This document shows, piece by piece, positions 2,248 through 56,261 of a DNA stretch of 64,000 nt (position 1 is its first letter; each line of letters opens with the position of its first letter). The stretch is taken from the IMG/VR virus record IMGVR_UViG_3300045988_023867. One strand, 5' to 3'. This stretch comes from a virus. The translations under genes and the position numbers were made by a program. The notes below the pieces were generated by a model, which had not been told where the DNA came from, made no database searches, and saw only the letters and a program-made list of their open reading frames with translations.

Positions 2248-2296
2248 TGTCCATCCTCTACGGGGGGCGGGAGGAACGAAGTTCCGACCTTTGGCT
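2248..2296 (+). repeat. GC-rich element, extended form: core CATCCTCTACGGGGGG, then GCGGGAGG, then hairpin GGAAC-GAA-GTTCC, then CGACC
   Basis: Intergenic, directly after the stop of ORF 1970-2227. Shares its core with at least 15 other sites. Confidence 0.85.
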
Positions 2297-2512
2297 TAAT
2301 AATTTAAATAGATATTATTATGACAGATATTATATTTTTTACTATATGTTTATTATTAATTGTAGCTATTCATATTATAGAAGAACTACATCTTATTAAA
2401 TTTATAACTCTTAATAGAGCTATTATTGCTGATTGTGTTATAGTTATTATATACTTACTGATATTTACTTTTATGATGTGAATTTATTAATTTTTTAAAT
2501 GTTATGTAAAAT

Positions 2513-2836
2513 ATGGGAAAATATGATGAAGTAACAGTAGTTAGAGAATTGTGTAAAAATCCAGCTGTAACTATCAACGATAAAGTGATTAGTGTTATTA
2601 AAGATACTAATCTTATTGGTAACAGTTTTTGGGGAAGAATTGACTTTCTTACTAAATACTGTGGTTATACACTTATACAAGTGGATTTGGACGAACAACG
2701 AGCTGCTAAGATTGCTGAACAAGAAGCAAGAAAAGCCGCTAAAGCTGCTGCTAGAGCTGAAAAACGTAAGAGTAAAGTAGATATTATCAGCTCTGTTAAA
2801 TCTAGTCTTTCTAAGAATAAATTTAATAGAAAATAA
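2513..2836 (+). CDS. Hypothetical protein with Lys/Ala-rich basic C-terminus
   Basis: 107-aa ORF. Overlapping alternative frames 2495-2722(-), 2592-2780(+) and 2665-2919(-) are judged spurious. Confidence 0.45.
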   Translation: MGKYDEVTVVRELCKNPAVTINDKVISVIKDTNLIGNSFWGRIDFLTKYCGYTLIQVDLDEQRAAKIAEQEARKAAKAAARAEKRKSKVDIISSVKSSLSKNKFNRK

Positions 2837-2842
2837 TATGTT

Positions 2843-3316
2843 ATGCCTACGTTTAAAGTGTCTTTTGGTTCAAGTGCTAAATCTAAAAGACAAAGAGTAA
2901 GTAGCAAATATGTTGTCATAGAGACTAAATGCGATGGTGAAATTATAATTGATAAACAAGGAGTATATAGAGTAAAGTATAAAGGACAAATATATCCTAT
3001 TACTACTGAATCTTATGAAACTAAACACAAAAGGGTTATATATGCTAGATGGTTAGATAAATATGGTCATAGAATTAAAATAATTCGTGATAAAGATAGT
3101 CGTAAAGCTACTAACATTAAATTCTATTGTGCTATTGCTCCTGGTTTATTAGTTCGTGGTAAGATTGTTAAAACAGCTTTTAGTCCTATTATGTTCCACG
3201 TAGTTATGTGTTATAATATAGCAGACGTTGAAGGTATGGCTTTATCTCTTCGTGATTGGAGAGAATATGAAGAAAAAGTTAAGAATGGAGAACTTGATAT
3301 TGAAAACGAACTATGA
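2843..3316 (+). CDS. Hypothetical protein
   Basis: 157-aa ORF. Its stop overlaps the helicase start in an ATGA arrangement. Confidence 0.5.
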   Translation: MPTFKVSFGSSAKSKRQRVSSKYVVIETKCDGEIIIDKQGVYRVKYKGQIYPITTESYETKHKRVIYARWLDKYGHRIKIIRDKDSRKATNIKFYCAIAPGLLVRGKIVKTAFSPIMFHVVMCYNIADVEGMALSLRDWREYEEKVKNGELDIENEL

Positions 3317-5522: not shown

Positions 5523-7880
5523 GTGATTGATTGTAGAGCTGCGGACGTTGAAGTACTTCCAAATTTTTATTCTATTACTTTTATTAGTCTTAATGATTAT
5601 CTGAAAGTATTTGCAGATTGTGTTAATGATAAAGGTAAACCTATACCATTAGTTCAAAAACTGACTGTTGCTGAAATTAAACGTAGACTTGATACTGTTA
5701 AGTGTGATGCGTTTTATATTACAGATAAAGACGATAGTCAATTATTGAGTTTAGTTGGTTATCTTAATGCGATGCGTAATAAAGGAATTAATGTTTATAC
5801 TTATAATGGACTTAGCTATGATAATCTTATGATAGCTGGGTTTCTTATGAATGTTAATTACTATGATAATACTAAGGACTTAATAAAGTATCTATATAAT
5901 CTTAGTAAAAAGATTATTTCTCTACAAGAAGATAAGGAACAACTATATAATGATTTTCAGATTAATACTGTTAAACGTTTTAAACTTCCTTATATTGGTA
6001 TTGATGTTATGCGAATATTCGCTCTTAATAAAGCTGGTGTTAGAATTGATAAAGATACAGGAGAACGAAAAGCTACTCCTAAAGGTCTTAAACAAACTTC
6101 TATAAATCTTCAATGGTTTGAATTACTAGAATATGAACTTCCTCCTATTTGTGACAAAGATGTAGAACTTTATTATGATAATCTATTATATAAAGGACTA
6201 CCTCCTGACAAAGTTAATAAACTTGTTGACAAGTGGGATAGATATATATTAGATGAATATATTCCACCTATGATGCATTATAATAAAAATGATGTATTTA
6301 TTGTATGTGAAATTGTTCGTCTTAATCCGGAAGAAATTAGGTCTAGATATTCTGTTAGTAGTGTATATAAAGTTGACCTTCTTAACAGTAGTCGTAGTAA
6401 TATGGCTGATAAACTGTTTGAGAAATTCTATTCAGAACGAAGCGGTCTACCACCTGAAAAATGGAAAGGTAAAAAGACTGAAAGAACTGCTATGAAACTT
6501 AGTCGTGTTATATTTGATAATATCGAATTTAAAACACCTCAACTTAAAAGTTTTCTTGATAGAATTAAAAAGAAAGTTCTTTATAGAGTTAATAAAGAAG
6601 AATTTAATGAGATTCTAACTATTGGAGATACTACTTATAGTATGGGAACTGGTGGGCTTCATAGTCAAGATATTCCTATGGAAATATGGAGTACTAGTGA
6701 TTATGGATGTAATGGTGTTATACCTTGTCCATCTCCTACGGGGGAACTTCAAAAAGCAGAACCGTTTACTTTAGTACATTGGGACATTAATTCAATGTAT
6801 CCGTCAATCATGAGTTCTTATTGGATATATCCAGAACATATGATTAAATCGGTATTTGTAGGATTGATAACGTGGATGAAAGATACACGAGTTACTGTTA
6901 AACATAGTTTAGAAGAAATTATAGATGGAGTTCCTAGAGAAGTTCTAGCGTTAGTGCTAAAGATTGTGATAAATTCTATATATGGTAAGCTTGGATTCGA
7001 AAAAGGAGATTTGTATGACAGATTAGCTGTATTGAAAGTAACGATAAATGGACAATTATTAATCTTAATGTTGATAGAGGAATTAGTACAGAACCATATC
7101 AAAGTTGTTAGTGCTAATACTGATGGTCTTATGGTTAAGATTAAAGATAGTCAATGGGACGTGTTTAACGAAATTGCAAGTAGATGGGAACAAAGGTCTA
7201 AGTTGAAGGCGGATGCCGACATCGTACATTGCTTGATAGCTAGGGACGTAAATTGCTATATAGCCCAATTCCGCACTAAGAAAGGTTTAAAGCTTGAATA
7301 TAAAGGAGCTTTAAATCCTCTTATGTATGCTGTTGACTTACAAAAAGGTTATGATATGCCTATTGTTGCACAAGCAGTTAGTAACTATTTTCTTGAACAT
7401 AAACCTGTAATGGAAACATTACGTAATGCTACTAATATTCTTGACTTTTGTAAAACTCAAAACGTTGGACGACAATTTCATGTAGAACAAACGTTTGTTA
7501 ATAATCAGCAAGTTCAAAGAGTTGTATGTCAAAGATATGTTAGATTTTATGTATCTAATACAGGTTGTATAGTTGAGAAAGTTCATAACGATACTGCATC
7601 TCGTTCTCGTATGGCTGCTGGTTCAGTTGTTACTGTTATTAATACTCTTGATGATATGGATATTTCATTGCGGAACATAAATTATAAGTATTATTACGAA
7701 GAAGCGATGAAGATTATTAATCCTATTAAACTAGGAATTAGTCCTAAAGGTAAAGGACGTACTCGTATTAAGAAAGCCTATGGGCAATTTAATAGTCTTT
7801 TTGATGATTCCGCATTTGAAGATGTCGAAGAAGATAATATTGAATTAGATGATTATGAAGACACTGGATTTGATGTATGA
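5523..7880 (+). CDS. Family B DNA polymerase with 3'-5' proofreading exonuclease
   Basis: Exo I is DVEVL, Exo II is YNGLSYDNL, Exo III is YNKND. Pol motif A is DINSMYPSI, motif B is KIVINSIYGKLGF, and the motif C region is SANTDGL. GTG start. Carries an in-frame GC-rich element at 6723-6750. Confidence 0.85.
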   Translation: MIDCRAADVEVLPNFYSITFISLNDYLKVFADCVNDKGKPIPLVQKLTVAEIKRRLDTVKCDAFYITDKDDSQLLSLVGYLNAMRNKGINVYTYNGLSYDNLMIAGFLMNVNYYDNTKDLIKYLYNLSKKIISLQEDKEQLYNDFQINTVKRFKLPYIGIDVMRIFALNKAGVRIDKDTGERKATPKGLKQTSINLQWFELLEYELPPICDKDVELYYDNLLYKGLPPDKVNKLVDKWDRYILDEYIPPMMHYNKNDVFIVCEIVRLNPEEIRSRYSVSSVYKVDLLNSSRSNMADKLFEKFYSERSGLPPEKWKGKKTERTAMKLSRVIFDNIEFKTPQLKSFLDRIKKKVLYRVNKEEFNEILTIGDTTYSMGTGGLHSQDIPMEIWSTSDYGCNGVIPCPSPTGELQKAEPFTLVHWDINSMYPSIMSSYWIYPEHMIKSVFVGLITWMKDTRVTVKHSLEEIIDGVPREVLALVLKIVINSIYGKLGFEKGDLYDRLAVLKVTINGQLLILMLIEELVQNHIKVVSANTDGLMVKIKDSQWDVFNEIASRWEQRSKLKADADIVHCLIARDVNCYIAQFRTKKGLKLEYKGALNPLMYAVDLQKGYDMPIVAQAVSNYFLEHKPVMETLRNATNILDFCKTQNVGRQFHVEQTFVNNQQVQRVVCQRYVRFYVSNTGCIVEKVHNDTASRSRMAAGSVVTVINTLDDMDISLRNINYKYYYEEAMKIINPIKLGISPKGKGRTRIKKAYGQFNSLFDDSAFEDVEEDNIELDDYEDTGFDV
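6723..6750 (+). repeat. GC-rich element copy, forward orientation, inside the DNA polymerase gene
   Basis: TTGTCCATCTCCTACGGGGGAACTTC, translated in frame as CPSPTGELQ just upstream of Pol motif A. Confidence 0.85.
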
Positions 7881-9240
7881 TAAATTAGCTGATAAATGGG
7901 GTATTGATAACCGTGGCAATGGAACTGTGCATTGCATTAAACCTATGGAATATACCAAACTTATTATGGTTATTCTTAAACGAATGCAAGCTAAGAATCC
8001 TGACTTAAAAGTATTTATAGCTGTTGATAGTTATTATACAAGAAAGAATATTGTTGATACTCTTAAAGAAAATAATATAAATCAAGACCATATTACTATA
8101 TTAAGTGAAACTTATATTAATGCTAAGTATAGATATACATATAATCTTGCTATTTTTGTTGGTCTTGAACGTTATAGTCTGTATGTTAATTGTGTAGGAA
8201 CTACTTCTGATTTTCATCTGTTTATTATAACTAAAGATGTTATTAAGACTGATGATTTAGCAGAAATATACAAACATTATCCTGCTGTAAATACAGAACT
8301 TAGTGCCAATGATTTAAATGCTGTTAATTTAAGTTCCCCCGTAGAGGAGAGAAGAGTAGGTTGTATATTGCCTACTGCTGATAAAGAACTGTATGATAAA
8401 TATACTGATTTTATAACTCAGTGTATGAATATATTTGGAGATTTTGATAATATCACTAAAGCTAGAATTGGAGATACCAAAGCTGGTATTAGTGGTACAG
8501 AATTTCGTAATCAATTAGCTTTAGATAATGGTTGGTCTCCTGAATTGGATATGACCATAGGATTTAATAGACAAGTTGATGAATGTTATAATCCTAATAT
8601 TCTATTAGATAAAGCTACTACTTGTTATGAGATTATGCGCAATAGAAGTAATCTCCTTACTGATAGTGATGCGAAACTGCCTATGATATTAAGTCTTGTT
8701 CTTGGAAATCCTGATAAACAAATAATGATTATATCTAAAAGAGGAGACTATGCTGCTAAAGTAACTAAATATTTAGAAGAATATGGAGTTGCTGTTGGAG
8801 ATTATCATGATTGTATTGAACCGAAACTTCTATTAGACGAAAACGGTATTCCGGTGACTTATAGCAAGAAAAGCCAAAAATGTGGGCAGCCTAGATACAT
8901 CAAATCTAAGGCTATTTCCAGCCTCAATGAGCGATTATTTCAAGAAGGACGATTAAAAGTATTATCCGTCAAAAATAGTTCGTCAGACGAGCTTAGAATC
9001 AATGTTGATATGTGGATAATTACAAGTCCTCTATGCGATGAAGTTACAGCTCTTAAATACCGTTTTAATAAGGTTATGTTTAACTCTACACCACATATTA
9101 TATATAAGGTATTCATGCAGGGAACTGTTGAAGAAACGAAGCTAATGCAGCTTAAACCGAATCATTATACTGATGTGATAACTACACTAAGTCAAGATAC
9201 AAATTTTGATGAAAATAATTGTGGAATTGTTTGCGGATAA
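7873..9240 (+). CDS. Hypothetical protein, with possible degenerate helicase C-terminal-like segment
   Basis: ORF starting at the ATG overlapping the polymerase stop (ATGTATGA). Contains the GC-rich element at 8332-8357, read as SSPVEERR. Confidence 0.5.
   Translation: MYDKLADKWGIDNRGNGTVHCIKPMEYTKLIMVILKRMQAKNPDLKVFIAVDSYYTRKNIVDTLKENNINQDHITILSETYINAKYRYTYNLAIFVGLERYSLYVNCVGTTSDFHLFIITKDVIKTDDLAEIYKHYPAVNTELSANDLNAVNLSSPVEERRVGCILPTADKELYDKYTDFITQCMNIFGDFDNITKARIGDTKAGISGTEFRNQLALDNGWSPELDMTIGFNRQVDECYNPNILLDKATTCYEIMRNRSNLLTDSDAKLPMILSLVLGNPDKQIMIISKRGDYAAKVTKYLEEYGVAVGDYHDCIEPKLLLDENGIPVTYSKKSQKCGQPRYIKSKAISSLNERLFQEGRLKVLSVKNSSSDELRINVDMWIITSPLCDEVTALKYRFNKVMFNSTPHIIYKVFMQGTVEETKLMQLKPNHYTDVITTLSQDTNFDENNCGIVCG
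8332..8357 (-). repeat. GC-rich element copy, reverse orientation
   Basis: GTTCCCCCGTAGAGGAGAGAAGAG, read in the host ORF as SSPVEERR. Confidence 0.8.
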
Positions 9241-12319: not shown

Positions 12320-13516
12320 ATGAGAAGAACTGTAACTAACGGTAATCTTACTAAAGAATTTATACTTTCTAAAATAAGTCAAGTTAGCATTTTTAGTGCT
12401 TATACAGGTGTAGATACAGAAGTAATAGAAAACTGTATTAATACCGGAGAATTTATATCAAGTCCTTTTCGTGTTGATGAACATCCTAGTTTCGGTTTTA
12501 AATATGACAATCGTGGTAAGTTAAAAGCTAAAGATTTTGCTGGTTATTTTCATGGAGATTGTTTTGACGCTGCTGCATTAGTTATCAGCGAGATTATTCA
12601 TAAGAATGTTGATATATCTAATAAAGGTTGGTTTATATTTGTTCTTAAACATATTGCATATACTTTTAGAAATATAATATATGGTAAGGATAAAGACGAA
12701 AATATCGAAGGAATAATAGCCGAAGGAGTTAATGCTGCTAGAAATAGAAAACATATTATAGAATTTGTTCCTAGACAATGGAATAATTATGATAAAAACT
12801 ATTGGGGAAAGTTTCATATCCCTATTAGTTATCTTAATACTAATTTTGTTTATCCTGTTGATTACTTTTATATTAATAGAAAAGTTAATCCTGAACCTAA
12901 ATACTATTATGAGAATGATAGAAAGGATGTATGTTATGCTTATATGCTAGGACAAGATAAACGAGGAGTATATAATATTAAACTGTATTTTCCTAATAGA
13001 AAACATGGAACTGTTAGATTTATTACTAATAGTAATTGTTTAGAAGGATTACTCAATCTCGAACTTAGTGAATATGATTCTATTATTATAACTAAAAGTA
13101 CTAAAGATAGAATAAGTCTTAGAGCGTATTTAGATGCAATAGACTTGTCTATCCCCTACGGGGGAACAGCCCTGCGAACCATAGGTCTTGTTAATATACC
13201 TCATGAATCATATAAACTTAAACAAAATGAATACGATTGGTTACGAGCAAAATGTCCTAATGGACTTATATTGTCTTTAATGGATAATGATAATACGGGA
13301 TATCGTGAAGCTATTTGGTTAAGAAATAATTATAATATAATACCGTTATGTATTCCTAGAGAATATGAAGTTAAAGACTTTGCTGAATTACGTAGTAAAT
13401 ATTCAATCGAAACTATAAAAGAACTTATTAATCTATCATATAATTATATAGCAGATAATTATGCAGAAAACGAATTTTCTTGGGATACGGGAGAAAGCTA
13501 TCCTCAACCGTTTTAA
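12320..13516 (+). CDS. DnaG-like DNA primase (zinc-ribbon-like N-terminus plus TOPRIM)
   Basis: SPFRVDEHPSFGF...FHGDCFD aligns with the DnaG CPFHxExTPSF...CFGCG pattern, but most cysteines are replaced. The TOPRIM DxD motif is MDNDNTGYREA. A GC-rich element is inserted at 13145-13176, read as PYGGTA. Confidence 0.6.
   Translation: MRRTVTNGNLTKEFILSKISQVSIFSAYTGVDTEVIENCINTGEFISSPFRVDEHPSFGFKYDNRGKLKAKDFAGYFHGDCFDAAALVISEIIHKNVDISNKGWFIFVLKHIAYTFRNIIYGKDKDENIEGIIAEGVNAARNRKHIIEFVPRQWNNYDKNYWGKFHIPISYLNTNFVYPVDYFYINRKVNPEPKYYYENDRKDVCYAYMLGQDKRGVYNIKLYFPNRKHGTVRFITNSNCLEGLLNLELSEYDSIIITKSTKDRISLRAYLDAIDLSIPYGGTALRTIGLVNIPHESYKLKQNEYDWLRAKCPNGLILSLMDNDNTGYREAIWLRNNYNIIPLCIPREYEVKDFAELRSKYSIETIKELINLSYNYIADNYAENEFSWDTGESYPQPF
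13145..13176 (+). repeat. GC-rich element copy, forward, inside the primase gene
   Basis: TTGTCTATCCCCTACGGGGGAACAGCCCTGCG, read as SIPYGGTALR. Confidence 0.85.
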
Positions 13517-14398: not shown

Positions 14399-15631
14399 AT
14401 GGAACAATGGTTATATAGAAAGAATAATAATGAAGTTCCTACACGGTGGAGAGCTGGAATTACCGATAATGGTTTAATTATTGAAGTTGAATATGGAATT
14501 GTCGGTAAAGCTAGTAGATTTGAAGCTTATAAAGTTACTCAAAAGAATGCCACTGCTGAACTTGAAAGTAGATATAGAGATAAACGTAAGACAGGATATA
14601 TGTCTATTGAAGACATTAAAGACGATGGTGATATTTTTCGTTCCCCCGTAGAGGATGGAGACATAAATAATCTCTATCAATATCTTGCCGCTTATCTACC
14701 AAAATATCGTACTAATGAAAATAATGGTGGACTATTACCAATGCTTGCCAAATCTTATACAGGTAAAGTATGGGATAAAGTTCCTGTTATGATTGGACAA
14801 TATAAGATTAATGGTCTTAGATGTTTTATTAGTGCTGAATATAACAATGGAGATATGTTTAAGCCTATAAAACTTAGATTTCAATCTCGTGAAGGTATTT
14901 ATTGGAGCACTCTTAGTAATCTTGAAGAATATCTTCTTACCGTCCTTCCTGAAGATTTAATTACAGCTATGATTGAAGAACAATGGTCGCTTGATGGTGA
15001 GATTTATCTTCCGGGATATACTGTAAATCAAATTAATCATTTTGTTAAAGACGCTAATTGTGTTGAAAATAAAGCTCTTCAATTTTGGTGTTACGATTTA
15101 GCTGTGCCAGAGATGAGTCAAAGTAATAGACTTGTTCTTATTGATAAATATCTTGATAATAGAATAACTAATTTTCATGATTATAAAGAACATCTTAATA
15201 ATGACAAACGTCTTATACGTCTACCTTCTATTTTTATAACAAACGATAATGAAGCTTTAAAATATAGAGATGAGTTTATTGGTCTTGGGTTTGAAGGACT
15301 TATTCTTCGTAATCCTTCTGCTGATTATCAATATGGTCGTAGACGTGTCGGTTATATGGAGAAGTTTAAATCTGCTACTGATGGTAAATTTCTTATAGTA
15401 GATATTTATAAAGAACCTAAGAGAGAATTACCTATTATTCTTTGTCAGAATGATGTAAATACTGCTAAATTTAAAACAAGACTTAGTGCTACTCATGAAT
15501 ATCAACAAATGATATTAAGAGATAAACATCTTTATATTGGAAAATATCTATTCGTTGAATTTGGAGAACGTAGTGGTGTTGAAAAAGTACCCTCTCATAT
15601 AAAGAAAACTCAAATAATACTTGATGAATAA
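14399..15631 (+). CDS. ATP-dependent DNA ligase-like nucleotidyltransferase
   Basis: Motif I is KINGLR, a KxDGxR variant. Motif III is SLDGEIYL, motif IV is FEGLILRNP, and motif V is EKFKS. A GC-rich element is inserted at 14641-14664, read as SPVEDGD. Confidence 0.6.
   Translation: MEQWLYRKNNNEVPTRWRAGITDNGLIIEVEYGIVGKASRFEAYKVTQKNATAELESRYRDKRKTGYMSIEDIKDDGDIFRSPVEDGDINNLYQYLAAYLPKYRTNENNGGLLPMLAKSYTGKVWDKVPVMIGQYKINGLRCFISAEYNNGDMFKPIKLRFQSREGIYWSTLSNLEEYLLTVLPEDLITAMIEEQWSLDGEIYLPGYTVNQINHFVKDANCVENKALQFWCYDLAVPEMSQSNRLVLIDKYLDNRITNFHDYKEHLNNDKRLIRLPSIFITNDNEALKYRDEFIGLGFEGLILRNPSADYQYGRRRVGYMEKFKSATDGKFLIVDIYKEPKRELPIILCQNDVNTAKFKTRLSATHEYQQMILRDKHLYIGKYLFVEFGERSGVEKVPSHIKKTQIILDE
14641..14664 (-). 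repeat. GC-rich element copy, reverse, inside the ligase gene
   Basis: TTCCCCCGTAGAGGATGGAGACAT, read as SPVEDGD. Confidence 0.85.
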
Positions 15632-16186: not shown

Positions 16187-16240
16187 AAAAAATATATTAT
16201 TATATAATTTGGTATATTGTTATTATTGTTACATTTGCGA

Positions 16241-17050
16241 ATGCAATTAAACCTATTAGATATGATTAAAGATATTAAACCTATTATTGGTATAGCAGGT
16301 AAAGCTAAGTCTGGTAAAGATACTGTTGCTGGTATGATTGCATATATTATACGAGAAGGACTATTTAGAGCCGATTATAGGAATTGGAGTATACGTTTTG
16401 ATAAACCAGGAGTTACTAGAGAAATTGGCGCTATTATTCATTTTGCTGATTTTGTAAAAGATATTTGTTCTAGAGTATTTCTTATTAATAGAGAATATTT
16501 TGACAAAATTCTTTATAAAGAACAATTATGCTATCTTATGGATAATGGTAAGTTCGTTAAACTTAACGAAGTACCGAGCGATTATATAATTGCTAATCAT
16601 GCTATATTAAGTACTACTTCCATTGCTTCTCTACTTAAAGGTTATAACAATAAAGTTGCTATTAGCCTTAGAACTATGTTACAATATGTTGGAACAGAAC
16701 TTGGTAGAAATCAATTAGGAGACAATTGTTGGATTAATGCTACTATGTCTAATGCTGGTATAATACGTAATAGATTTGGATTTTGTACCATAGCTGACGT
16801 AAGATTTGCTAATGAATGTGACGCTATAAGAAAACAAAAAGGAGGATTTGTTATTGAAATTAAAAGACCTAATGACGACGAAATTAAACCTAAAGGTTCT
16901 GTTCATATTAGTGAATCTCTTGAAGGTATTAATCCAGATTTTGTTATTGATAATGATGGTAATAAGTTCAAGTTATTTCACCAAGTGTTGTCAGTATTAG
17001 ATAAGATAAATCAATCTTCTCATTCCCTACGGGGGAACAGCCCAAAGTAA
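16241..17050 (+). CDS. P-loop nucleotide kinase, dNMP-kinase-like
   Basis: Walker A is GIAGKAKSGKDT. The track ORF begins at a TTG at 16217; the first ATG is at 16241. The C-terminus is built from a GC-rich element, read as SLRGNSPK followed by the stop. Confidence 0.55.
   Translation: MQLNLLDMIKDIKPIIGIAGKAKSGKDTVAGMIAYIIREGLFRADYRNWSIRFDKPGVTREIGAIIHFADFVKDICSRVFLINREYFDKILYKEQLCYLMDNGKFVKLNEVPSDYIIANHAILSTTSIASLLKGYNNKVAISLRTMLQYVGTELGRNQLGDNCWINATMSNAGIIRNRFGFCTIADVRFANECDAIRKQKGGFVIEIKRPNDDEIKPKGSVHISESLEGINPDFVIDNDGNKFKLFHQVLSVLDKINQSSHSLRGNSPK
17015..17044 (+). repeat. GC-rich element copy, forward, forming the 3' end of the kinase gene
   Basis: TCTTCTCATTCCCTACGGGGGAACAGCCCA, read as SHSLRGNSPK followed by the stop. 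Confidence 0.85.
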
Positions 17051-41000: not shown

Positions 41001-43956
41001 TTATATCAGCATCAAATCCTTCATTTATAAGTTCATTTTTGATAACAGCATATTGTTCATCATAAGACATATTGACTAATTCCTCATCTGTATTCTTTAA
41101 GAACTTATCTAATACATAAGCATTTATTTCAGAACTAGCATTAAATTGTTTTTCTTGAATAGCTTCTTGTTGTGCAAGAACAGATTCTATTTCTTTATCA
41201 GCACTATCTTCTTCGACACCTCTAACAATTTCTGGGGGTGCTTGTTGAGGTTCCCCCGTAGGGGATGGAGAGATTGCATCATCTTTACCTTGTTTCTGTT
41301 CTTCTTCAATAGGAGCTTCTTGTTTAACTTGTGCAACAGGCGGAACTTGTTCTACTGGTTTATTATTAACAGTAGCTACAGGTTGTTGTCCTTTTTGCCT
41401 TGCTTTTAATCTAGCGTGCCTACTTATAACATCAGTGATAGGTTCTGACGATTCATCGAACATATTAATATTCTTAACTATATCATCAAGTTCCTTTTTA
41501 ATATTATCGTTTAGTTCTGCATCTTTATTTCCAGCTAAATAATCAAGAACTGTATCAATATCGTTTGATTCAAAAGCATTATCTAATCTTTTAATATTAT
41601 CTTTAAGAGCTTCATCTTTAACAGTTCTATATTCGTTTTCTATATATTTAGCTCTATCTCTAATCTGTTGATTAGTTTCTGCAACATCACTATCTATTAG
41701 AGTTTTTCTTCGTTCAGCCATACTACGACCAATAACAGCAGTGGCTATATTTTTATCTATATTACCAAGTTCTTGAAGAGCAGTATTATTTCTATTTTCA
41801 TTATATAAAGCATTAAATTCAGTTTCATTAGTAGTATTAGCAGATTTAACAAATGCTTGTTTCTTCTTATTTATTTTACGAGCAATATGGTCATGCTCAA
41901 ACTTAGTAATAGTTTTAGCTTTAAGATTATCATCATTAACTTTAAGTTGTTGATTAAGATAATTAAGTTCTTGAGCAATTCCTTCTAATTGAACAGCTCT
42001 ATTTAATTCATCAACTCTAGTTTTAGTATTAACATCAGATATATCATTAAGAGATTTATTATATTCATCAGTATATTTATTTATTATATTTTGTTCATTT
42101 CTAGAAGCTAATTTATTATATGTATTTTCTTTAGCTATTTGACTAGCTATATTAGCATCTTTAGCATCATTATTTATTGCTTTATTAAGCTCTGTTTCAT
42201 AAGTCTCAGATACTTCATTCATTTTAGCAATAATATTAGTCATGAATTGTTTAGATTGTCCTTGTTCAATAGCTCCTGATTTATCCATATATTGAGCTAT
42301 GTCTTCTGACATAAGGAAGTCTTTTAGCAAATCATAATTACTTTTGTCAATAGCATTAATAGTTAAATCTGTAATAAGTTTCTCAGTAGCATTTTGTTTT
42401 AATGCTTCTTTTTCAGTTTCGTTTACTTCTTCATAAACATTATTACCATCAACATCTTGAACTATATTACCTTCATCATTAATAACAGGACTATTAGGAT
42501 TATATCCTTCATTTAATATAGCCATATCATTAATATATTTATCTAATATACTAGCTCTAGTATCTATTTCAGCTTTACGACTTTCTGTTAGAATATCTTT
42601 ATTTTTAGATATATATTTAGCGTATTGTTTATTAGCAGCACTACCTATACCTTGAAAAGCTACTCCTCCAAGCCATCCCCAAAACGATTGTTCCCACATT
42701 TGAGGGTCTTTAAGATAATCAGTATAAGTACGAGATTCATGTGCATCATTAAGCATTTCTCGTCCTTTATCAACTCCTGCTTGTTGTTGTATATATTGCC
42801 ATCCTTCTTCAAATCCTTCACTTCCTTCACGAACAATATTAAGAAGACTTTCTTTATCAGGAACTCGTAGATATTTCTTAATACCAGTAGGAGCTTGTAT
42901 TTCTCTACCAACTAATCTAGCAGCAGCTTGTTCATTAGCTTCTCTTAAAGTTCTATTAGTAGCTATATTTCTAGCACCTTTCCAAATATTTCTTAATCCT
43001 TTAAGCTGAAACGCGTCTAATAACATAAGCCACATATCGTTCTTAAAAGTATCATCAGCAGATTCTCCTGATACATATTTAGCAATTTCATCATCACTAA
43101 GTCCACGAAGTTTAGGATTAGCATTATATAAAGTTTCTCTATCAGATTCTGACATAGAAGCTAATCTTTCTTTAGCTTCATCATAAACTTGTGTATAAGT
43201 ATCTCTAGCTTCTATATAGTTTTCAGCAACTCTACTAGCAGCGGCAGTTCCCATAATATCACTACCAACTTCTACCATTTTACCAAAAGTATTTGGTCTA
43301 CCAAATGGTTTACCTGCTACTTTACCTATACCACGAGCTAATCGTCCAAGACCTGCAATTTTACCTAATTTAGCGACAGCAGTTCCAGGTATTAAAAGAC
43401 TTAATGTACTAGCTATACTTACAGCATTACCAAGCCACCATCCACTGTCACTAAAATCAAAGTTTTCATTAGGGTTTTCTCTATATATTTCAAGTCTTTC
43501 ACGAATAGCATCTTGCCATTCTGCAAGTTGAGAACTAACAGGATTAGTATAATCATCGTCAGTAACTCCTATAAGTTGTCCAGCTGCATCAACTAAATCA
43601 CTAAATCCACGAAGAGTACCAAGTACAACTTCAGAACCAACCGCTTGTCCAACGAATCTACCGGTTTGTTCAAGTACTCCTTGATTCTCTGCACGTTCTT
43701 TATTAAGTTCTTCTTCAGTATCATAAGGATTAACATAAGTATCATAAGGAGTATATTTATCTACATCATATTGATTAAGATTATATATACCTCTTGCTAA
43801 TGTACGTCCTAAAACAGAACGTCCCGCATCACTTGTAGAAGTGGCGGGATTGAAATCTGTTATAGTAGGGGGCTGTAATGCCCCCTTTTTAGTCTTAGGA
43901 TTATAGTCAGGATTTCTTCTAACGTTTCCTTCTTGCGCAAACTTTAGTATATCCAT
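38044..43956 (-). CDS. Large virion protein (1970 aa) with long coiled-coil region and a C-terminal HExxH motif
   Basis: Long Q/E/K/N-rich heptad region in the middle. VHEQLH at about residue 1721 (nt 38782-38796). Two GC-rich elements in frame. Confidence 0.75.
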   Translation of the reverse strand: MDILKFAQEGNVRRNPDYNPKTKKGALQPPTITDFNPATSTSDAGRSVLGRTLARGIYNLNQYDVDKYTPYDTYVNPYDTEEELNKERAENQGVLEQTGRFVGQAVGSEVVLGTLRGFSDLVDAAGQLIGVTDDDYTNPVSSQLAEWQDAIRERLEIYRENPNENFDFSDSGWWLGNAVSIASTLSLLIPGTAVAKLGKIAGLGRLARGIGKVAGKPFGRPNTFGKMVEVGSDIMGTAAASRVAENYIEARDTYTQVYDEAKERLASMSESDRETLYNANPKLRGLSDDEIAKYVSGESADDTFKNDMWLMLLDAFQLKGLRNIWKGARNIATNRTLREANEQAAARLVGREIQAPTGIKKYLRVPDKESLLNIVREGSEGFEEGWQYIQQQAGVDKGREMLNDAHESRTYTDYLKDPQMWEQSFWGWLGGVAFQGIGSAANKQYAKYISKNKDILTESRKAEIDTRASILDKYINDMAILNEGYNPNSPVINDEGNIVQDVDGNNVYEEVNETEKEALKQNATEKLITDLTINAIDKSNYDLLKDFLMSEDIAQYMDKSGAIEQGQSKQFMTNIIAKMNEVSETYETELNKAINNDAKDANIASQIAKENTYNKLASRNEQNIINKYTDEYNKSLNDISDVNTKTRVDELNRAVQLEGIAQELNYLNQQLKVNDDNLKAKTITKFEHDHIARKINKKKQAFVKSANTTNETEFNALYNENRNNTALQELGNIDKNIATAVIGRSMAERRKTLIDSDVAETNQQIRDRAKYIENEYRTVKDEALKDNIKRLDNAFESNDIDTVLDYLAGNKDAELNDNIKKELDDIVKNINMFDESSEPITDVISRHARLKARQKGQQPVATVNNKPVEQVPPVAQVKQEAPIEEEQKQGKDDAISPSPTGEPQQAPPEIVRGVEEDSADKEIESVLAQQEAIQEKQFNASSEINAYVLDKFLKNTDEELVNMSYDEQYAVIKNELINEGFDADIIDDILPKELSSVNYIYKSIQEMNADEHSSSIDFVISKIVTDEESDKAEYFRNLIDIYKANNNILSVNGKDYFNIISLMRFAIKESNATFETVNKLYDELRTYLLLGTDENLINISPRDLTLDREKLMELVQDQEREDPELDNNIGIYTENKQGEEALASLQVGQELEVRHEPKGISFWSTVNYGGVDIPVKIGFNKKMRKTSDNDGYIFSNEFWSYEVRYTEDGYSSSLDELFDRLNPENGEISDEAKQFIDLIYKARLNKLTDEDINNLWNNSLSDLVLPLLKNKNKNNEVGTKLLRNIGNIYLYKVSDNLNDNYISYGEFIAKQYNNYKMIDNIDNNIDNAKVTVKYVSRGEAIFDINAEPQAINKAIVGFNYNDIHLGIVAADGEIRDTVNGTVRVKAGFNNTNLLVIVPNGTNEPFYAKVIPQGFDINSQLGAAIRNEIINSIKDRQMNNISFEELKNRLMDIFGVKNFVNGVNCVEYDNRIIIAPAGSNIPMLTIFKYKNNSTEEGTGITLNPTMTSGAGLGRTGWGGSLETELTDIIDKLLTGSTYSMSYDIPMNRDKNRYVKHEDNGQLTITFGDTSVTYENYLDYIIKNNTGKIKLGKTKIGNVESNFRPNPKDNSAKQKVRIEYEVLRPVGDEETARQSSITAIEQHGNQEDVNTKSLIKAIAPDFADSASRIILEELIPTNVDIVTDNNETDFAVYNTGTGKVTLLKSYFDLARGSQYKAVRTLVHEQLHKRIYDNGIMQSQSFIDEMTTIRDRFIDALNNPDAYPEFAKHIQDNLYDKDNYIAQLRKVVDPASFPNQDYNYMLEEFIVESLTNNVLNEALNNISSTKEISADVKRPNLWQKVIELIRELFGFNKIKDNTLLAQELRAFGKKFKDIKSVEEKLIQDNADKQVEEPTQSIETIINEQDITAAEASQQADDTMGLDVDISDMFSSIDIAGEDIIVPNMASVRAGLSMAERTEFDSSLAAGDTQIYCK
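39071..39100 (+). repeat. GC-rich element copy, forward on +, CGGGGCGC variant
   Basis: GTCTCCTCATCCCCTACGGGGCGCAGCACT, read in the 1970-aa ORF as VLRPVGDEET. Confidence 0.8.
41249..41275 (-). repeat. GC-rich element copy, reverse on +
   Basis: GGTTCCCCCGTAGGGGATGGAGAGATT, read in the 1970-aa ORF as ISPSPTGEPQ. Confidence 0.85.
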
Positions 43957-46602: not shown

Positions 46603-49083
46603 TTAAATTGTAACACCTTTATCTCTAAATAATCTTTTATCTGTATTAGGATGTGTAGCATCATAAATACCAAGAGTATTATTATAATTTCTACGATTTT
46701 CAATACGACTAAGCATATCTTGAAGTCCAGCATTAATACCACTAAACATATTATTAAGAGAACTAGCTTTTTGTTCTCTAATAGCGTTTCTAAATTGAGT
46801 AGTACGATTTCTCCAATCATTATAAGCAGCAGTATTTCTACTTCCAACTCTTTGCCTATTTAATCTATCTTGATTAATAAGCTGAGTTTCTATATTTTCT
46901 TTTTGACCATAAAGATTATTTTTAGCGTATTGTCCAGCATTACGTAATCTTTGTTTTCTTTGAAGAGCTACTCGACTACTAGCTGTATTAGCAGTAATAT
47001 CGTCCATACTTCTACGAGTATTCTCATTAATCTCGCTTATTTGAGGTCTTATATTAAAATGGGTTTTCATAGCAGCAGGGACTTCATACATAGGTTCACT
47101 AGGAGCTTCCATATTATTAAATGATTTGCGAGTATTTATAGCACTAGCAATACTTCCTCCTATATTACCTGCAAGACCTATAATATCATTAGTATCTAAT
47201 TTATCAAATAAAGCAAGTCGTTTACGAGGAGATTCAATTACATCAGGAACTCCTGTATTAGTACTAGCTCCTTCAATAGTACGTGGTTCTATTCTAGTAG
47301 GGGTTTGAGCACCTCTAGTATTAATACCTTGAATCATTGTGTTTAAATCTGCAAATTTAGGTGCAGGTTTAGTTGGTTCAGCAGGTTTAGCAGCAGGCTT
47401 AGATTTACTCTTTCCACTTCCCCTACGGGGGGCTGTTACTTTGGTCTGCTTAGTCGTCGTAGTTGTCTGAACTGGTTGTTCAACTTTAGTACTTCTAGTA
47501 GTAACAGTTTTAGGTTTACTTTCTATTTTATCAGGAGTATATTGTGGACGTTCTAGCATATCTCTAAAGTCAGTTCTTGCTCCTTTAGCATCTCTACGAG
47601 CAGCGGCTTCAACATCTTTATCTGTCCCACTGCCAATAGGTTTAGCAGCATTACGTCCTGTAACTTTATATTGTTTTCCTTTATATTCGAAAGTATCTCC
47701 TATTTTATATTTGGTAGTATCAATTCTAAAGTCATAGTCTTTACCAACGGCTGCTTTTTCTCGTTCCCCCGTAGAGGATGGAGAGATAACTAGACCTGAT
47801 TTGACATTACCATTAACTGTTACAACTCTACCTCCTACTTTTTTTTTACGATTAAATATTCCTCTACCGTATTCAATCATATCATTAAATCCAGCAGAAA
47901 GTATATCACCAACTTCATTACTGCCACTTTTACCATAAATAACTTCTTCATTATTATCAATATAACCAATTCTACCTGGTTTGTCATTAATAGGACTTCT
48001 ACGTTTAACAGGACTTACAGTATTACTTTCTACTCTAACTGTATGTTCTTGAATAGGTTTTGATTTAGAAGGAACATATCTATTAGATTCTAATTGATTA
48101 ATTAGTCTACTATTAACTCTAGGAGCAGTAACTTTAACTTCAGGAAGATTATTAGAAGTTATGCTACTTCTAGTACTTGTTTGTTGATTAGTTTTAGGTT
48201 TTGAAGAACCAGCTACTTGTGTTCCATATTGTTTACCATTCCAAGTAAATTCACTAAGACCTTGTTTTCTAGCAGCAGCAAAAGCACTATTAAATGATTG
48301 TCTTTTAGTCTTAGGTTTAGCAGTAGAAGTATTATATTTAGCATTAGTTCTTTCAATAGCGGTTCTATTACTTGGAGTAACAGGTAAATTACCATAAACA
48401 TTATTCATTGACAATGTAGGTAGATTAAGATTACGTCCTTGATATTGAGGATTAGTTCTTGCATTTCTAAGAGCTTTAATAGTCTTAGCTTCTTCTCTAC
48501 CATAATAATCTCCGGCAAGAGTAGGATAATCTTCTCTTATACCTCCCATACGTTTCTTTTTCAAATCTGGATATTTTTTATAAACTTTAGCTTTAACATC
48601 AGAACGACCATGAAGTCCAGCAAGACGCAAAGCATCTACTGCGTCTGCTCTAGTAGGTATTGGATAACTTCTTCCACCACCAGCAAAATCTTTTTTATTA
48701 ATACTAGGATATGGTTTCTTACTTGAACCATAATCTTTATTTCTACTTAATCCTCCCATACGTTTCTTTTTAGTACCATCATCATTAATACCATTTACTT
48801 CTTTAAATCTTTCTTGAGCATTAAATACTTTAGCAGGATTAGCGCCACCCATTACAAGTTTAGCAGGACTATTACCATTAAGAATAGGTTGAGCACTAAA
48901 TACTTTTAAACCATTAGAATCTGTTTGAACAACTTCTCCGTCTTCAACTTCAAGTCCTGTTCTAGGATTCTTACCAATATCTATACCGCCAGCTTCATGT
49001 TTTCTACCTGACATATAGTATAGATTACCTTTTATATTAGTGGCACGTCCACCACGAACTATATTAGGTTCATATCTAGTCAT
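46603..49083 (-). CDS. Large basic hypothetical virion protein (826 aa) with duplicated KKKRMGG motif
   Basis: Lys/Arg/Gly-rich. The 20-nt exact direct repeat CCTCCCATACGTTTCTTTTT at 48542-48561 and 48752-48771 encodes the duplicated peptide. Two GC-rich elements in frame. Confidence 0.7.
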   Translation of the reverse strand: MTRYEPNIVRGGRATNIKGNLYYMSGRKHEAGGIDIGKNPRTGLEVEDGEVVQTDSNGLKVFSAQPILNGNSPAKLVMGGANPAKVFNAQERFKEVNGINDDGTKKKRMGGLSRNKDYGSSKKPYPSINKKDFAGGGRSYPIPTRADAVDALRLAGLHGRSDVKAKVYKKYPDLKKKRMGGIREDYPTLAGDYYGREEAKTIKALRNARTNPQYQGRNLNLPTLSMNNVYGNLPVTPSNRTAIERTNAKYNTSTAKPKTKRQSFNSAFAAARKQGLSEFTWNGKQYGTQVAGSSKPKTNQQTSTRSSITSNNLPEVKVTAPRVNSRLINQLESNRYVPSKSKPIQEHTVRVESNTVSPVKRRSPINDKPGRIGYIDNNEEVIYGKSGSNEVGDILSAGFNDMIEYGRGIFNRKKKVGGRVVTVNGNVKSGLVISPSSTGEREKAAVGKDYDFRIDTTKYKIGDTFEYKGKQYKVTGRNAAKPIGSGTDKDVEAAARRDAKGARTDFRDMLERPQYTPDKIESKPKTVTTRSTKVEQPVQTTTTTKQTKVTAPRRGSGKSKSKPAAKPAEPTKPAPKFADLNTMIQGINTRGAQTPTRIEPRTIEGASTNTGVPDVIESPRKRLALFDKLDTNDIIGLAGNIGGSIASAINTRKSFNNMEAPSEPMYEVPAAMKTHFNIRPQISEINENTRRSMDDITANTASSRVALQRKQRLRNAGQYAKNNLYGQKENIETQLINQDRLNRQRVGSRNTAAYNDWRNRTTQFRNAIREQKASSLNNMFSGINAGLQDMLSRIENRRNYNNTLGIYDATHPNTDKRLFRDKGVTI
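47413..47440 (+). repeat. GC-rich element copy, forward on +
   Basis: TCCACTTCCCCTACGGGGGGCTGTTAC, read in the 826-aa ORF as VTAPRRGSGK. Confidence 0.8.
47763..47788 (-). repeat. GC-rich element copy, reverse on +
   Basis: GTTCCCCCGTAGAGGATGGAGAGATA, read in the 826-aa ORF as ISPSSTGERE. Confidence 0.85.
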
Positions 49084-49120: not shown

Positions 49121-49136
49121 ATTTTAAAGCTCTCTG
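49121..49136 (-). promoter_or_regulatory. Conserved motif variant, rc = CAGAGAGCTTTAAAAT, 38 nt upstream of the start of ORF 46603-49083, followed by TATATAAT
   Basis: Lies in the 139-bp gap upstream of the 826-aa gene. Confidence 0.4.
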
Positions 49137-49222
49137 TCAAACGATTATCAAAATCAATACTAATTATCACAACCTATATCAAAATTCAACAGCGAGTAAA
49201 TAAACATGGTCTACGTTAATGT

Positions 49223-55185: not shown

Positions 55186-55196
55186 AACGATTGACT

Positions 55197-55212
55197 TATT
55201 TTAAGCCCTCAC
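55197..55212 (-). promoter_or_regulatory. Conserved motif variant, rc = TGTGAGGGCTTAAAATAAGTC, ending 12 nt before the ATG of ORF 49831-55185
   Basis: Matches the + strand sites, including the flanking TGTGAG and AAGTC. Confidence 0.45.
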
Positions 55213-55400
55213 AGGCGATTATTTTGACTTAATCTGATTAATTATATGATATGAAAATTATCTCTACGCAGAGGTCAGGAAAACCATATCTACGAGCCTC
55301 ATTTTCATCATTTCGGTTACTCGAATCCATTCTTACAGATAAGCCATAAATACCATTAACTGTAACAATATCTATTATATCTTCCATAACAACTTCTCAT

Positions 55401-56261
55401 TTATTTCGGAAAAGTATAATTATAGAAATAACTACGCCAAGCATCACCATCTTTATCCCCTGATTCAGCTTGCCAATCAATAATAACTCCAGCTTTAGCT
55501 TTATTCTTTAATTGTTCCCATTGATAATAAGGATTAGTTCCATATTGACTAGCTCCAAGATTAAACACAGGATGTTTCATACCACGACATAACATCTTAT
55601 ACATACAGTAATATCCAATAGCTTCAATTAATATATAATTGTTAGGAATAACAGGAATATCACATTTATAATATTCACTATATTCAGTTTCAATTTCATT
55701 GGATATAATATCTATATATTTAGCATCAAAGTTAATCTCTATTGTATGGTCATCAATAAGGACATAACCTCTATCTTCACATCCTCTACGGGGGGCGGAA
55801 TAAAGCTCCTCAACAACAGTTGCTTGTTTTGTAACATCAGGAGTATTATTATGTATAGCTAAACTTCCATAAGTTTCTTTACCATTATAACCAGTATCAA
55901 CTATTGACATAGTATTCGACAATTCTAATGACTTGTCGGGCTGTTCCCCCGTAGGAGATGGAGAAGAACAACTACCACATCGAACCGATATAACATCAAC
56001 TTCACATCCATTATCATCATATACTTTAAGTCCTTTTGTACTAAATGGACAAGCAGTTCTAGCAATATTATTAATAACTTCTAATCGACGTTTCTTAGGA
56101 ACTACTCTAAGAACATCTAATTGTCCCATAGCATCTATAGTCCACGATATAACTCTAGGTATCCAATCGCTACCATCTGGATTAAAATCGTTGTCTATTT
56201 TTGCTATTATCTTTTCTACTGAAATAGTATTATTGTTTTGCATAATCAATAGTATTATCAA
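55401..56261 (-). CDS. Hypothetical virion protein
   Basis: 286-aa ORF containing two GC-rich elements in opposite orientations, read as APRRGCEDRG and SPSPTGEQP. Confidence 0.6.
   Translation of the reverse strand: MIILLIMQNNNTISVEKIIAKIDNDFNPDGSDWIPRVISWTIDAMGQLDVLRVVPKKRRLEVINNIARTACPFSTKGLKVYDDNGCEVDVISVRCGSCSSPSPTGEQPDKSLELSNTMSIVDTGYNGKETYGSLAIHNNTPDVTKQATVVEELYSAPRRGCEDRGYVLIDDHTIEINFDAKYIDIISNEIETEYSEYYKCDIPVIPNNYILIEAIGYYCMYKMLCRGMKHPVFNLGASQYGTNPYYQWEQLKNKAKAGVIIDWQAESGDKDGDAWRSYFYNYTFPK
55775..55803 (+). repeat. GC-rich element copy, forward on +
   Basis: CTTCACATCCTCTACGGGGGGCGGAATAA, read in ORF 55401-56261 as YSAPRRGCED. Confidence 0.85.
55938..55969 (-). repeat. GC-rich element copy, reverse on +
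   Basis: GGGCTGTTCCCCCGTAGGAGATGGAGAAGAAC, read in ORF 55401-56261 as SSPSPTGEQP. Confidence 0.85.

Follow-up and report, generated by a model that had tools for sequence, protein, structure and literature searches.

DNA uptake sequences (DUS) and uptake signal sequences (USS) are built on a core of ~10-12 nucleotides (nt) with a weaker flank; they are present in many copies in both orientations, can fold as terminators where inverted pairs lie between genes, vary between lineages as dialects, and are born by point mutation. Karlin et al. are said to have found the spacing of USS to be remarkably even. Both kinds of sequence are written into coding regions by way of tolerated peptides, with a preference for poorly conserved protein segments (PMC2817400). 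Chi sequences, which are recognized by RecBCD or AddAB, are 5-8 nt long and belong to the host genome, where they are over-represented, biased to one replichore strand, orientation-dependent, embedded in genes by codon choice, lineage-specific, co-evolving, and needed at intervals. The signals for single-strand initiation (ssi) and primosome assembly (pas), such as G4 ori-c, the phiX174 n' site and the ssi/pas sites of plasmids, are strand-specific GC-rich hairpins, with GCGAAGC mini-hairpins among them; the known ones are 50-100 nt long, non-coding, and few per replicon. Signals of this type stay folded in single-stranded DNA coated with single-stranded DNA-binding protein (SSB), and there recruit a primase or a helicase loader. 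Here we describe a family of short GC-rich repeats in a 64,000-nt stretch of viral DNA (IMG/VR record IMGVR_UViG_3300045988_023867; the whole stretch is referred to below as the window, and positions are counted from its first letter), which derives from a crAss-like phage and has a GC content of ~30%, as had been claimed for it. The repeated motif is kept by purifying selection on the DNA itself, and remains in place in the genome from one genus to the next, even as the codons, the reading frame and the ends of open reading frames (ORFs) shift around it.

By analogy, the repeats are closest in genomic behaviour to the DUS/USS, and after these to Chi, whereas in mechanism their closest counterparts would be the ssi/pas signals. 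They share with the DUS/USS each of the properties given above, the use of tolerated peptides and the even spacing included, and differ from them in a lower density (~1 per 3 kb), in an evenness that holds for each strand, and in the hairpin extensions carried by some copies. To our knowledge a phage, whether lytic or plasmid-like, has no DNA-uptake machinery, so that some other reader is called for and the resemblance is one of population-genomic behaviour only. The repeats resemble Chi in orientation dependence, over-representation, embedding in genes by codon choice, lineage specificity, co-evolution and an apparent need at intervals, but they are longer, specific to the phage, balanced in orientation, and often joined to hairpins. 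As compared with the ssi signals, with which they share the GCGAAGC element of the long forms and, by prediction, a GC-rich hairpin on one strand, the repeats are short, number ~30 per genome, and lie in coding DNA on both strands.

A weight-matrix scan of the window found 17 copies of a motif of the form Y-C-C-Y-C, TAC, GGGGG, where none was expected (shuffled sequences gave none). These results bear out the original prediction that a repeat family exists here beyond chance, and all 17 of the coordinates which it listed were correct. The k-mer count that had been proposed as a check gave 11 occurrences of CTACGGGGGAAC at ≤1 mismatch, as against 0.02 expected from shuffles, and the 15-mer core at ≤2 mismatches likewise occurred 11 times, with 0 expected. 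The heptamer TACGGGG occurs 18 times in the window, in 17 of the 18 cases within a common pyrimidine-rich context. In the window the copies agree on YNTNYCCATCCYC-TAC-GGGGG, which 11 of them continue with AAC (in one case AAA); the other 6 copies end in GC, or in CGC behind a run of four Gs (GGGGGGC or GGGGCGC), so that the core sequence which at least 16 copies had been said to share is carried by only 11 of the 17. The information profile of the 17 copies showed conservation from about -13 to +10 around the TAC. What had been described as a discrete element of ~30 bp is instead a 13-nt core, T-C-Y-Y-C TAC GGGGG, with a weaker, lineage-specific flank (~22-24 nt).

Both orientations are used without relation to gene strand, as had been noted, although the count is 10 forward and 7 reverse, not 8 of each. 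Translation confirmed that 14 of the 17 copies lie inside long ORFs and that none of these introduces a stop codon; 7 are sense and 7 antisense, and the peptides that result are SPSPTGE/SSTGE, PYGG, LRGN, SPVED and PRRG. Behind each of the 3 intergenic copies (2259, 22970 and 23091) comes another hairpin, whose loop is GAA or GCA. Pfam confirmed the assignment of the genes for the SF1 helicase, PolB, ligase, deoxynucleoside monophosphate (dNMP) kinase and tail ring protein of the window, and the identities of the SNF2 ATPase, DnaG-family primase and RNA polymerase were taken from the annotations of the related genomes cr11_1 and CrAssphage ZA; in this way names could be supplied for the 7873 ORF (SNF2-type ATPase) and ORF 55401 (tail ring or tail tubular protein), which had been cited by position. 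The 17 copies are as follows; the figure in parentheses is the position of the T of TAC.

2246..2289, plus strand (2259): intergenic long-form copy; core TCCATCCTC-TAC-GGGGGG, then hairpin GGAAC-GAA-GTTCC, then GACC
6724..6747, plus strand (6737): PolB gene; sense, SPSPTGE, in a variable loop directly before polymerase motif A
8333..8356, minus strand (8343): SNF2-type ATPase gene; antisense, SSPVEE
13144..13167, plus strand (13157): DnaG-family primase gene; sense, IPYGGT
14640..14663, minus strand (14650): ATP-dependent DNA ligase gene; antisense, SPVEDG, N-terminal to the adenylation domain
17015..17038, plus strand (17028): dNMP kinase gene, at the 3' end of the ORF; sense, SLRGNSPK and then the stop codon
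22957..23001, plus strand (22970): intergenic long-form copy, left member of a convergent pair; CCCT-TAC-GGGGCGC, hairpin GGCAAC-GCA-GTTGCC, then GACC
23061..23104, minus strand (23091): intergenic long-form copy, right member of the convergent pair; CCTC-TAC-GGGGGGC, hairpin GGTTGC-GAA-GCAACC
26836..26859, plus strand (26849): giant RNA polymerase ORF (24597-37961, minus strand); antisense, FPRRRR
30929..30952, plus strand (30942): giant RNA polymerase ORF; antisense, SPVEDE
34997..35020, minus strand (35007): giant RNA polymerase ORF; sense, SSTGE, a variant ending GGGGGAAA
39072..39095, plus strand (39085): ORF of 1970 amino acids (aa); antisense, RPVGDE, GGGGCGC type
41250..41273, minus strand (41260): 1970-aa ORF; sense, SPSPTGE
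47411..47434, plus strand (47424): 826-aa ORF; antisense, APRRGS, GGGGGGC type
47763..47786, minus strand (47773): 826-aa ORF; sense, SPSSTGE, common to CrAssphage ZA at the orthologous position
55774..55797, plus strand (55787): tail ring/tail tubular protein ORF (55401-56261, minus strand); antisense, APRRGC
55943..55966, minus strand (55953): tail ring/tail tubular protein ORF; sense, SPSPTGE, common to cr11_1

The 1970-aa ORF encodes an RNA-polymerase-associated protein fused to a zincin protease.

For comparison with relatives we used 120 loci that were selected for the motif, among the matches listed, and 78 PolB-anchored loci that were chosen regardless of it. The peptide S-[SP]-T-G was present in 120/120 PolB homologs among the matches listed, down to 57% identity, in a loop that is otherwise hypervariable, and the DNA motif was found there in the same frame in 60 of 77 loci, most of the misses being alignments that fall short of the site. 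The motif was also found at the orthologous position in 72/75 loci for the SNF2 ATPase and in 61/66 for the ligase, both of them antisense sites, and in 65/68 for the sense site of the primase, where it is read as LYGG in 45 loci and as PLRG in 20, that is, in two reading frames. In the replication module these four sites can be followed in nearly all loci to PolB identities as low as 48%, and the codons ACG and GGG, which are rare at 30% GC, are fixed in them. The tail-protein site at 55774 is read as PRRG/PRGG in the window and in ZA, and in the PVED frame in cr11_1. Because the primase and tail-protein sites are read in different frames at the orthologous place, selection must act on the nucleotides; conservation at the level of the peptide is rejected, in line with the original prediction, by the existence of five peptides, the use of both orientations, and these changes of frame. 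At the kinase site the motif lies just 3' of the stop codon in several other genera, while in the lineage of the window the dNMP kinase ORF (16217-17050) runs through it and ends ...SSHSLRGNSPK*, with a C terminus ~11 aa longer than in Carjivirus.

The extent of the conserved object was defined by the mismatch profile of 229 orthologous pairs at ≤92% identity, which gave a footprint of exactly 13 nt (T-C-Y-Y-C TAC GGGGG). The flanks that adjoin this footprint are more variable than the general background, and the flanking codons are hypervariable. It is thus the motif that is conserved, and the proteins accommodate it in loops, linkers and termini. A length divisible by 3, which had been thought to preserve reading frames, is not a property of the motif, for there is no insert.

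Sites present in close relatives were at the same positions as those in the window. Every aligned relative at 80-98% identity has the motif at each window site, and so do the 7 close relatives among the PolB-anchored loci at all of the sites between 2259 and 17028 that their alignments reach. Sharing of this kind without empty sites had been named as grounds for refuting insertion, and by that test the idea fails; the segments are not ordinary conserved sequence either, since the nucleotides stay constant while the reading frame around them changes. No motif-bearing indel was seen in the alignments at 80-98% identity, nor did the alignments to the 120 and 78 loci contain motif-bearing indels, empty sites or duplications, and the motif comparisons revealed no target-site duplications, terminal repeats or fixed length. 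For 243 motif instances, the only partners without the motif were one with a deletion of 11 nt, one point variant, and a small number whose identity was ≤72%; an apparent extra site in two loci (L174 and L177) proved to be a false positive of a relaxed search pattern. The idea of an in-frame mobile mini-element, similar to the Rickettsia palindromic elements (RPEs) or the GC clusters of yeast mitochondria, is therefore not sustained.

Comparison of filled and empty sites between genera showed how lineage-specific sites came about. WN-SSTGE-LTE is matched by WN-NDGV-LTD, a difference of +1 codon; VPFLRGVSP by QPILNGNSP, LPVED by LPIED, and LLLYGETGKSGNK by VVAYGETGKSGNK, each with a difference of 0 codons, the last of these inside a conserved nucleotide-binding loop (LLLYGETGKSG vs VVAYGETGKSG). 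The giant RNA polymerase site at 30929..30952 is missing at the aligned position of cr11_1, where the length differs by 2 aa. Sites found in a single lineage thus came about by point substitution, at a net gain of no more than 1 codon, and it is by substitution that new copies appear wherever SSTGG, PVED, LYGG, PLRG or PRRG can be accommodated in the protein.

True insertion can be seen in the same relatives, in which a group I intron of 1,023 nt, absent from the window, is polymorphic. In a relative at 95% identity it occupies L157:11269-12291, corresponding to window position ~6788 inside the PolB gene (5523-7880), where it splits polymerase motif A (HWDIN/SMYPS) ~45 nt downstream of the PolB copy of the repeat; it introduces stops in the PolB frame and contains an ORF of the GIY-YIG type, and is thus a group I intron with a homing endonuclease. 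The same intron is present in L176, L177, L179-L188 and L204. Relatives are collinear with the window, with no inversion between inverted copies of the motif such as an invertible segment or shufflon would produce, and no clean case was found of a long-form hairpin that is polymorphic as a separate insertion. The G-rich run followed by a GAA-loop hairpin resembles the initiation of mutagenic homing site of diversity-generating retroelements; a target of such an element was set aside, since the sites number ~30 and occupy essential genes, and since the annotations list no reverse transcriptase. As regards repetitive extragenic palindromes (REPs) and their associated RAYT transposases, we observed that GTAG lies on the C-rich strand, that most copies are intragenic, and that no transposase is present in the annotations of ZA, cr11_1 and crAss002 (the window ORFs were not searched exhaustively).

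Spacing was examined on both strands of the window, ZA, cr11_1 and crAss002, which represent two subfamilies. The coefficient of variation (CV) of spacing was 0.45-0.50 after merging of pairs <600 bp apart, as compared with ~0.95 for random placement. Within each orientation, and with no merging, the CV was 0.25-0.53 as against ~0.9 expected, with P ≤ 0.006 in 8/8 tests; the maximum gaps in each orientation are small (8-14 kb), and copies occur every ~5-8 kb on each strand. Since each orientation taken alone is spaced far more evenly than chance, the motif is read in a strand-specific way. Adjacent copies alternate in orientation more than expected by chance (combined P ~0.002), and close inverted pairs are common between genes. 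In all four genomes the orientation of a copy is unrelated to the direction of transcription, and sense and antisense copies are about equal in number.

The motif is specific to the Intestiviridae as a family and not to the window genome alone. Viral contigs that contain TCCYCTACGGGGGAAC are, among the matches listed, mostly of crAss size (85-94 kb), and many are 80-98% identical to the window. Complete genomes of Intestiviridae carry 29-36 copies each: 31 in CrAssphage ZA (Carjivirus, the prototypic crAssphage type), 35 by weight-matrix scan or 36 by pattern scan in cr11_1 (Delmidovirus), and 29 in the cultured crAss002 (Churivirinae). No copy was found in the 100 kb of crAss001 (Steigviridae), or in 50 kb each of cr1_1 and cr50_1 (Suoliviridae). 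Most of the 78 PolB-anchored loci, which span 48-98% PolB identity, have 2-4.5 copies per 10 kb, and a few that appeared to be free of the motif carry a variant, TCCCTC-TAC-GGGCAAGCTAC. A scan of a genome collection for CATCCTCTACGGGG yielded, among the matches listed, single chance-like matches in unrelated taxa, on which ground a host repeat was rejected. The motif appears to be undescribed: no description was found in the literature, including papers on the RNA polymerase of phi14:2, on C. communis and on P23-45, with the sequence itself included in the search, although most papers in subscription journals lay outside that search and a prior mention is possible.

A universal core, pyrimidine5-TAY-GGG(G)-purine, can be recognized throughout the family, and its 3' continuation is specific to the lineage. 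This flank reads GGGGGAAC in the window, GGGGGGTCTAC or GGGGAGTATA in Carjivirus, and GGGGGGTCTC in Delmidovirus, while the dialect of crAss002 is GGGGGAA behind CTCCTT-TAY. In 4 loci with PolB 52-58% identical (L165, L166, L173 and L179), the 3' half of nearly every copy has been altered in the same way, to TAC-GGGCAAGCTAC, with a second CTAC placed exactly 11 nt past the first and a hairpin potential of ~3 bp; this lineage may be useful for finding the factor that reads the signal. Dialects are homogenised within lineages partly by way of non-synonymous changes, as at the primase site, which has GGGGGGTC in relatives at 80% identity and GGGGGAAC in the window. Such homogenisation suggests either that a trans-acting reader has evolved along with the dialects or that copies are converted from a template.

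With regard to crAss001 (MH675552), which is annotated with a replicative DNA helicase (taken here as DnaB-like) and a bacterial-type primase, we observed that this genome has a dispersed 10-mer of its own, CCTTCTGGAG, present 12 times in 100 kb as against ~0.06 expected (our estimate from base composition). The related sequences CCATCAGGAG and CTTCCTGAGC also recur; both orientations are used, and several copies have the form of a CTCC-N4-GGAG mini-hairpin. This repeat may be an analogous signal of the Steigviridae, and hints that the principle of punctuation may extend across the Crassvirales.

In most copies the G-rich strand is predicted to fold into a core hairpin, which has a stem of 4-5 bp and TAC or TACG as its loop. 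Read as RNA, the TACG loop falls in the C(UACG)G class, which matches the stable UNCG tetraloops. The left arm is nearly all C or T, opposite a right arm of unvarying G, as would be expected of a stem in which G can pair with both of these bases. Among hits anchored on TACGGG alone, of which ~10% are chance matches, pyrimidine makes up ~88-90% of the five upstream positions, and the three positions that follow downstream hold mostly purines. As to the long forms, their extra hairpins are real structures: in orthologs of the copy at 2259 the stem changes from GGAAC/GTTCC to GGGAC/GTCCC and to GGCAC/GTGCC, with compensation in each case. Loops of the long forms are of the C(GNA)G or GNRA type, and several carry GCGAAGC or (NAGCG)n arrays. 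The element d(GCGAAGC) first came to notice in origins of phages with single-stranded DNA; Hirao et al. reportedly found mini-hairpins of this type in DNA to be exceptionally stable, and to be present in the origins of G4 and phiX174.

Extensions of the (NAGCG)n/GCGAAGC kind, built of pentamers, were observed at 28308, 45088, 94412 and 96609 of ZA (MK238400) and at 4214, 47844 and 86218 of crAss002 (MN917146), some of them inside ORFs. A 20-mer, AGCGGAGCGAAGCGGAGCGG, is common to these two genomes of different subfamilies at sites that are apparently non-orthologous. Rfam 15 gave no match at its gathering thresholds over the whole window, and chance-level hits around the long forms; tRNA-like elements were looked for and none was found. 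The core also resembles helix 14 of 16S rRNA, the region of the 341F primer (ACTCCTACGGGAGGCAGCAG, hairpin CUCC-UACG-GGAG): the copy at 39085 reads CCTACGGGGCGCAGCACT (window 39078-39098), with 15/18 positions matching. This likeness is probably a coincidence that reflects the stability of the UACG hairpin.

On balance we favor the view that the repeats are a functional cis-acting nucleotide signal of the Intestiviridae, not inserted DNA, and that their reader belongs to the replication-recombination module of the phage. Replication and recombination are suggested because those processes cross the genome in both directions, and the motif co-occurs with a module of PolB, a Pif1/RecD-like SF1 helicase, an SNF2 ATPase, a DnaG-like primase, two SSBs, RecT and ligase, while it is missing from crAss001, with its annotated replicative helicase, and from the Suoliviridae sampled. 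A component of this module (PolB, the SF1 helicase, the SNF2 ATPase, the stand-alone DnaG-like primase, one of the two SSBs, or RecT) would meet the signal on DNA that is single-stranded or being tracked, in movement of either direction. The chances are close to even that, more specifically, the motif is a family-wide, strand-specific punctuation of 13 nt, placed every 5-8 kb per strand, which dictates amino acids and co-evolves as dialects; it may then be a distributed signal for priming or loading, or a phage-encoded, Chi-like tag of self. Of the possible mechanisms a single-strand initiation or primosome-loading signal is our tentative choice. The G-rich strand would fold into a small GC hairpin, exposed in AT-rich DNA coated with SSB and backed up in some copies by the highly stable C(GNA)G or GNRA hairpin beside it; the small GC hairpin would recruit the primase or the helicase in a family that is without a DnaB-type partner, and the lineage-specific 3' flank would reflect co-evolution with the reading factor.

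Several points weigh against this interpretation. A covariation test showed no Watson-Crick covariation beyond the inner Y:G pairs, the invariant Gs of the right arm leaving none to see; the GGGCAAGCTAC dialect forms only ~3 bp, and that of crAss002 would need several G.T wobbles. The core hairpin is plausible but unproven, and recognition of the sequence on duplex or tracked DNA would fit just as well. For the priming of Okazaki fragments, 5-8 kb per strand is a long interval, and known primases need only trinucleotides. The correlation of family with type of replisome is drawn from three families and partial genomes. The spacing tests share orthologous sites and so are not fully independent, and selection against direct repeats that lie close together could contribute to the evenness, though it would leave the small maximum gaps unexplained.

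Other explanations account for part of the same evidence. One that fares nearly as well as the priming or loading model, though it is likewise less likely than not, is a Chi-like marking of self, in which a tracking helicase-nuclease would respond to the motif when meeting it in one orientation, and would then either halt or turn from degrading DNA to recombining it. This enzyme may be the AddAB or RecBCD of the host, or the SF1 helicase of the phage together with a PD-(D/E)XK nuclease; copies in both directions may shield the phage genome whichever end is attacked, whereas host DNA, being free of the motif, is degraded. The even spacing and small maximum gaps in each orientation, the alternation and close inverted pairs, the embedding in coding sequence by codon choice, the lineage dialects, and the presence in the family of an SF1 helicase, a PD-(D/E)XK nuclease and RecT would all suit this scheme, which needs no hairpin and so agrees with the GGGC dialect as well. 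But known Chi sequences have 5-8 nt, as against 11-13 nt plus flanks here, these phages encode a Gam-like inhibitor of nucleases, structured hairpins with compensatory changes would have no role, and crAss001, which also grows on Bacteroides, lacks the motif; a weaker objection is that, among the matches listed in one genome scan, no bacterial contig has the extended motif more than once. Binding sites on duplex DNA were the other possibility raised in the original prediction, and a recognition site does lie nearer to the evidence than a mobile element, but duplex binding itself we regard as improbable. A phage protein, either an IHF/HU-like component of the virion or a global regulator, would in that case organise the genome, its packaging or its transcription in the manner of stoperators; the ~20-nt length, the dialects, the coverage of the whole genome by ~30 sites, and the lack of covariation that would demand a folded form are consistent with this. 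Against it, an architectural site that is blind to orientation predicts no evenness within each orientation, and the pyrimidine left arm opposite the invariant G, as well as the add-on hairpins, point to single strands. The stoperators of Cluster A mycobacteriophages are likewise dozens of short conserved sites spread over a phage genome, within genes or at their ends, but they are oriented with transcription and bind a repressor, whereas the motif is independent of transcription in its orientation, mostly intragenic, and even on each strand. The 17-bp repeats of Cluster O phages are similar in their dispersal, but unlike the motif they are palindromic and intergenic (PMC4351075).

Explanations by transcription or by mobility fare less well. 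An ordinary promoter or terminator was rejected on orientation and intragenic position, in accord with the earlier conclusion that the motif is not a conventional transcription signal, and the position of 14 of the 17 copies within genes, 7 sense and 7 antisense, is likewise not that of phage RNA-polymerase promoters. An RNA element, with the C(UACG)G hairpin acting in transcripts as a stabiliser, processing site, pause signal or terminator, is very improbable. Its loop and closing pair match the stable UNCG class, G.U wobbles are tolerated, and intergenic inverted pairs fold like terminators (as at 23902/23929 of ZA, -27 kcal/mol), yet RNA elements are disfavoured by the equal numbers of sense and antisense copies: the deeply conserved SNF2 and ligase copies are antisense, the sense copies stand in the middle of essential genes such as PolB, and Rfam contains no match. 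A little less probable still is a site for another enzyme, namely a hairpin at which the giant RNA polymerase, once injected, would start as on an N4 promoter or would pause, or the target of a nickase that makes nicks of the T5 or phiKMV kind, which may serve to start strand-displacement synthesis. Phage RNA-polymerase promoters are also strand-specific sequences of 13-20 nt with dialects, the run of Gs past TAC resembles a +1 GGG start, and genes for HNH endonucleases are present in ZA and crAss002. In favor of a polymerase site one may also count that gp66 of phi14:2 transcribes denatured DNA and that its early promoters are unknown (bioRxiv 10.1101/2020.03.07.982082). Half of the copies, though, would drive antisense transcription inside genes, and crAss001, with a polymerase of the same type, has no motif. 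As to nicking, the phage nick systems known to us mark one strand only. Least probable of all is a mobile mini-element of the type of RPEs, GC clusters or miniature inverted-repeat transposable elements (MITEs) that inserts in frame and spreads. The repeats do share with these elements a dispersed, short, GC-rich character within genes of an AT-rich genome, in both orientations and several frames, with the reading frame unbroken; many copies lie in variable loops rich in indels, the homogenised flanks could reflect copying from a master, and the oldest sites may have an ancient insertional origin. But elements of this type insert, are polymorphic, have a defined length and often target duplications, and decay after insertion, while the motif shows no presence/absence polymorphism at 80-98% identity in loci selected for it or chosen without bias, and no terminal repeats, target duplications or discrete length. 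Its filled and empty sites differ by substitution, with 0 to +1 codon, and its core, better conserved than the codons around it, remains intact to 48% PolB identity while the flanks decay, the opposite of what relics would show; even spacing on each strand is also not expected from insertion. Active mobile DNA is thus excluded.

Two other repeats in the window were observed in the course of this work. A sequence of ~50-80 nt, CGTTCAAyNGTGAGCCTTAAAATRAGTC...TATAATATTAAATAATT, is present at 851-901 and 16159-16209, with 84% identity between these direct copies, and inverted at 49121-49203. It lies directly upstream of three gene starts (ORFs 902 and 16217, and the minus-strand ORF 49083), and is probably a shared promoter or regulatory region. 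At 23727-23790, between convergent blocks of plus- and minus-strand genes, there is a GC-rich inverted repeat, AAAAGCCCGTAG...CTACGGGCTTCTTTT, which has the shape of a bidirectional intrinsic terminator and whose stem holds CTACGGG and CCCGTAG.

The observations on the 13-nt motif indicate that short GC-rich repeats that stay in frame inside genes need not be selfish insertions. If the motif is indeed a cis-acting signal with a reader in the replication-recombination module, then a code is superimposed on the protein-coding sequence of a dominant family of gut phages, the Intestiviridae, to which the most abundant phage of the human gut belongs; the signal would be strong enough to dictate sequence even within essential genes, including those for PolB, primase, ligase, the virion RNA polymerase and tail proteins. 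The recurrent odd peptides (SSTGG, PVED, LYGG) and the fixed rare codons of essential proteins would then be explained, and the motif would provide both a sequence marker and, in its dialects, a character for the classification of Intestiviridae. It would also be a warning against naive codon optimisation or recoding in the engineering of these phages. These ideas can be tested directly, as crAss002 and Carjivirus communis are in culture. The motif would further point to an unrecognized step in the replication or recombination of crAss-like phages, which may be the priming or loading of a PolB replisome without a DnaB-type helicase, or the distinction of phage DNA from that of the host.

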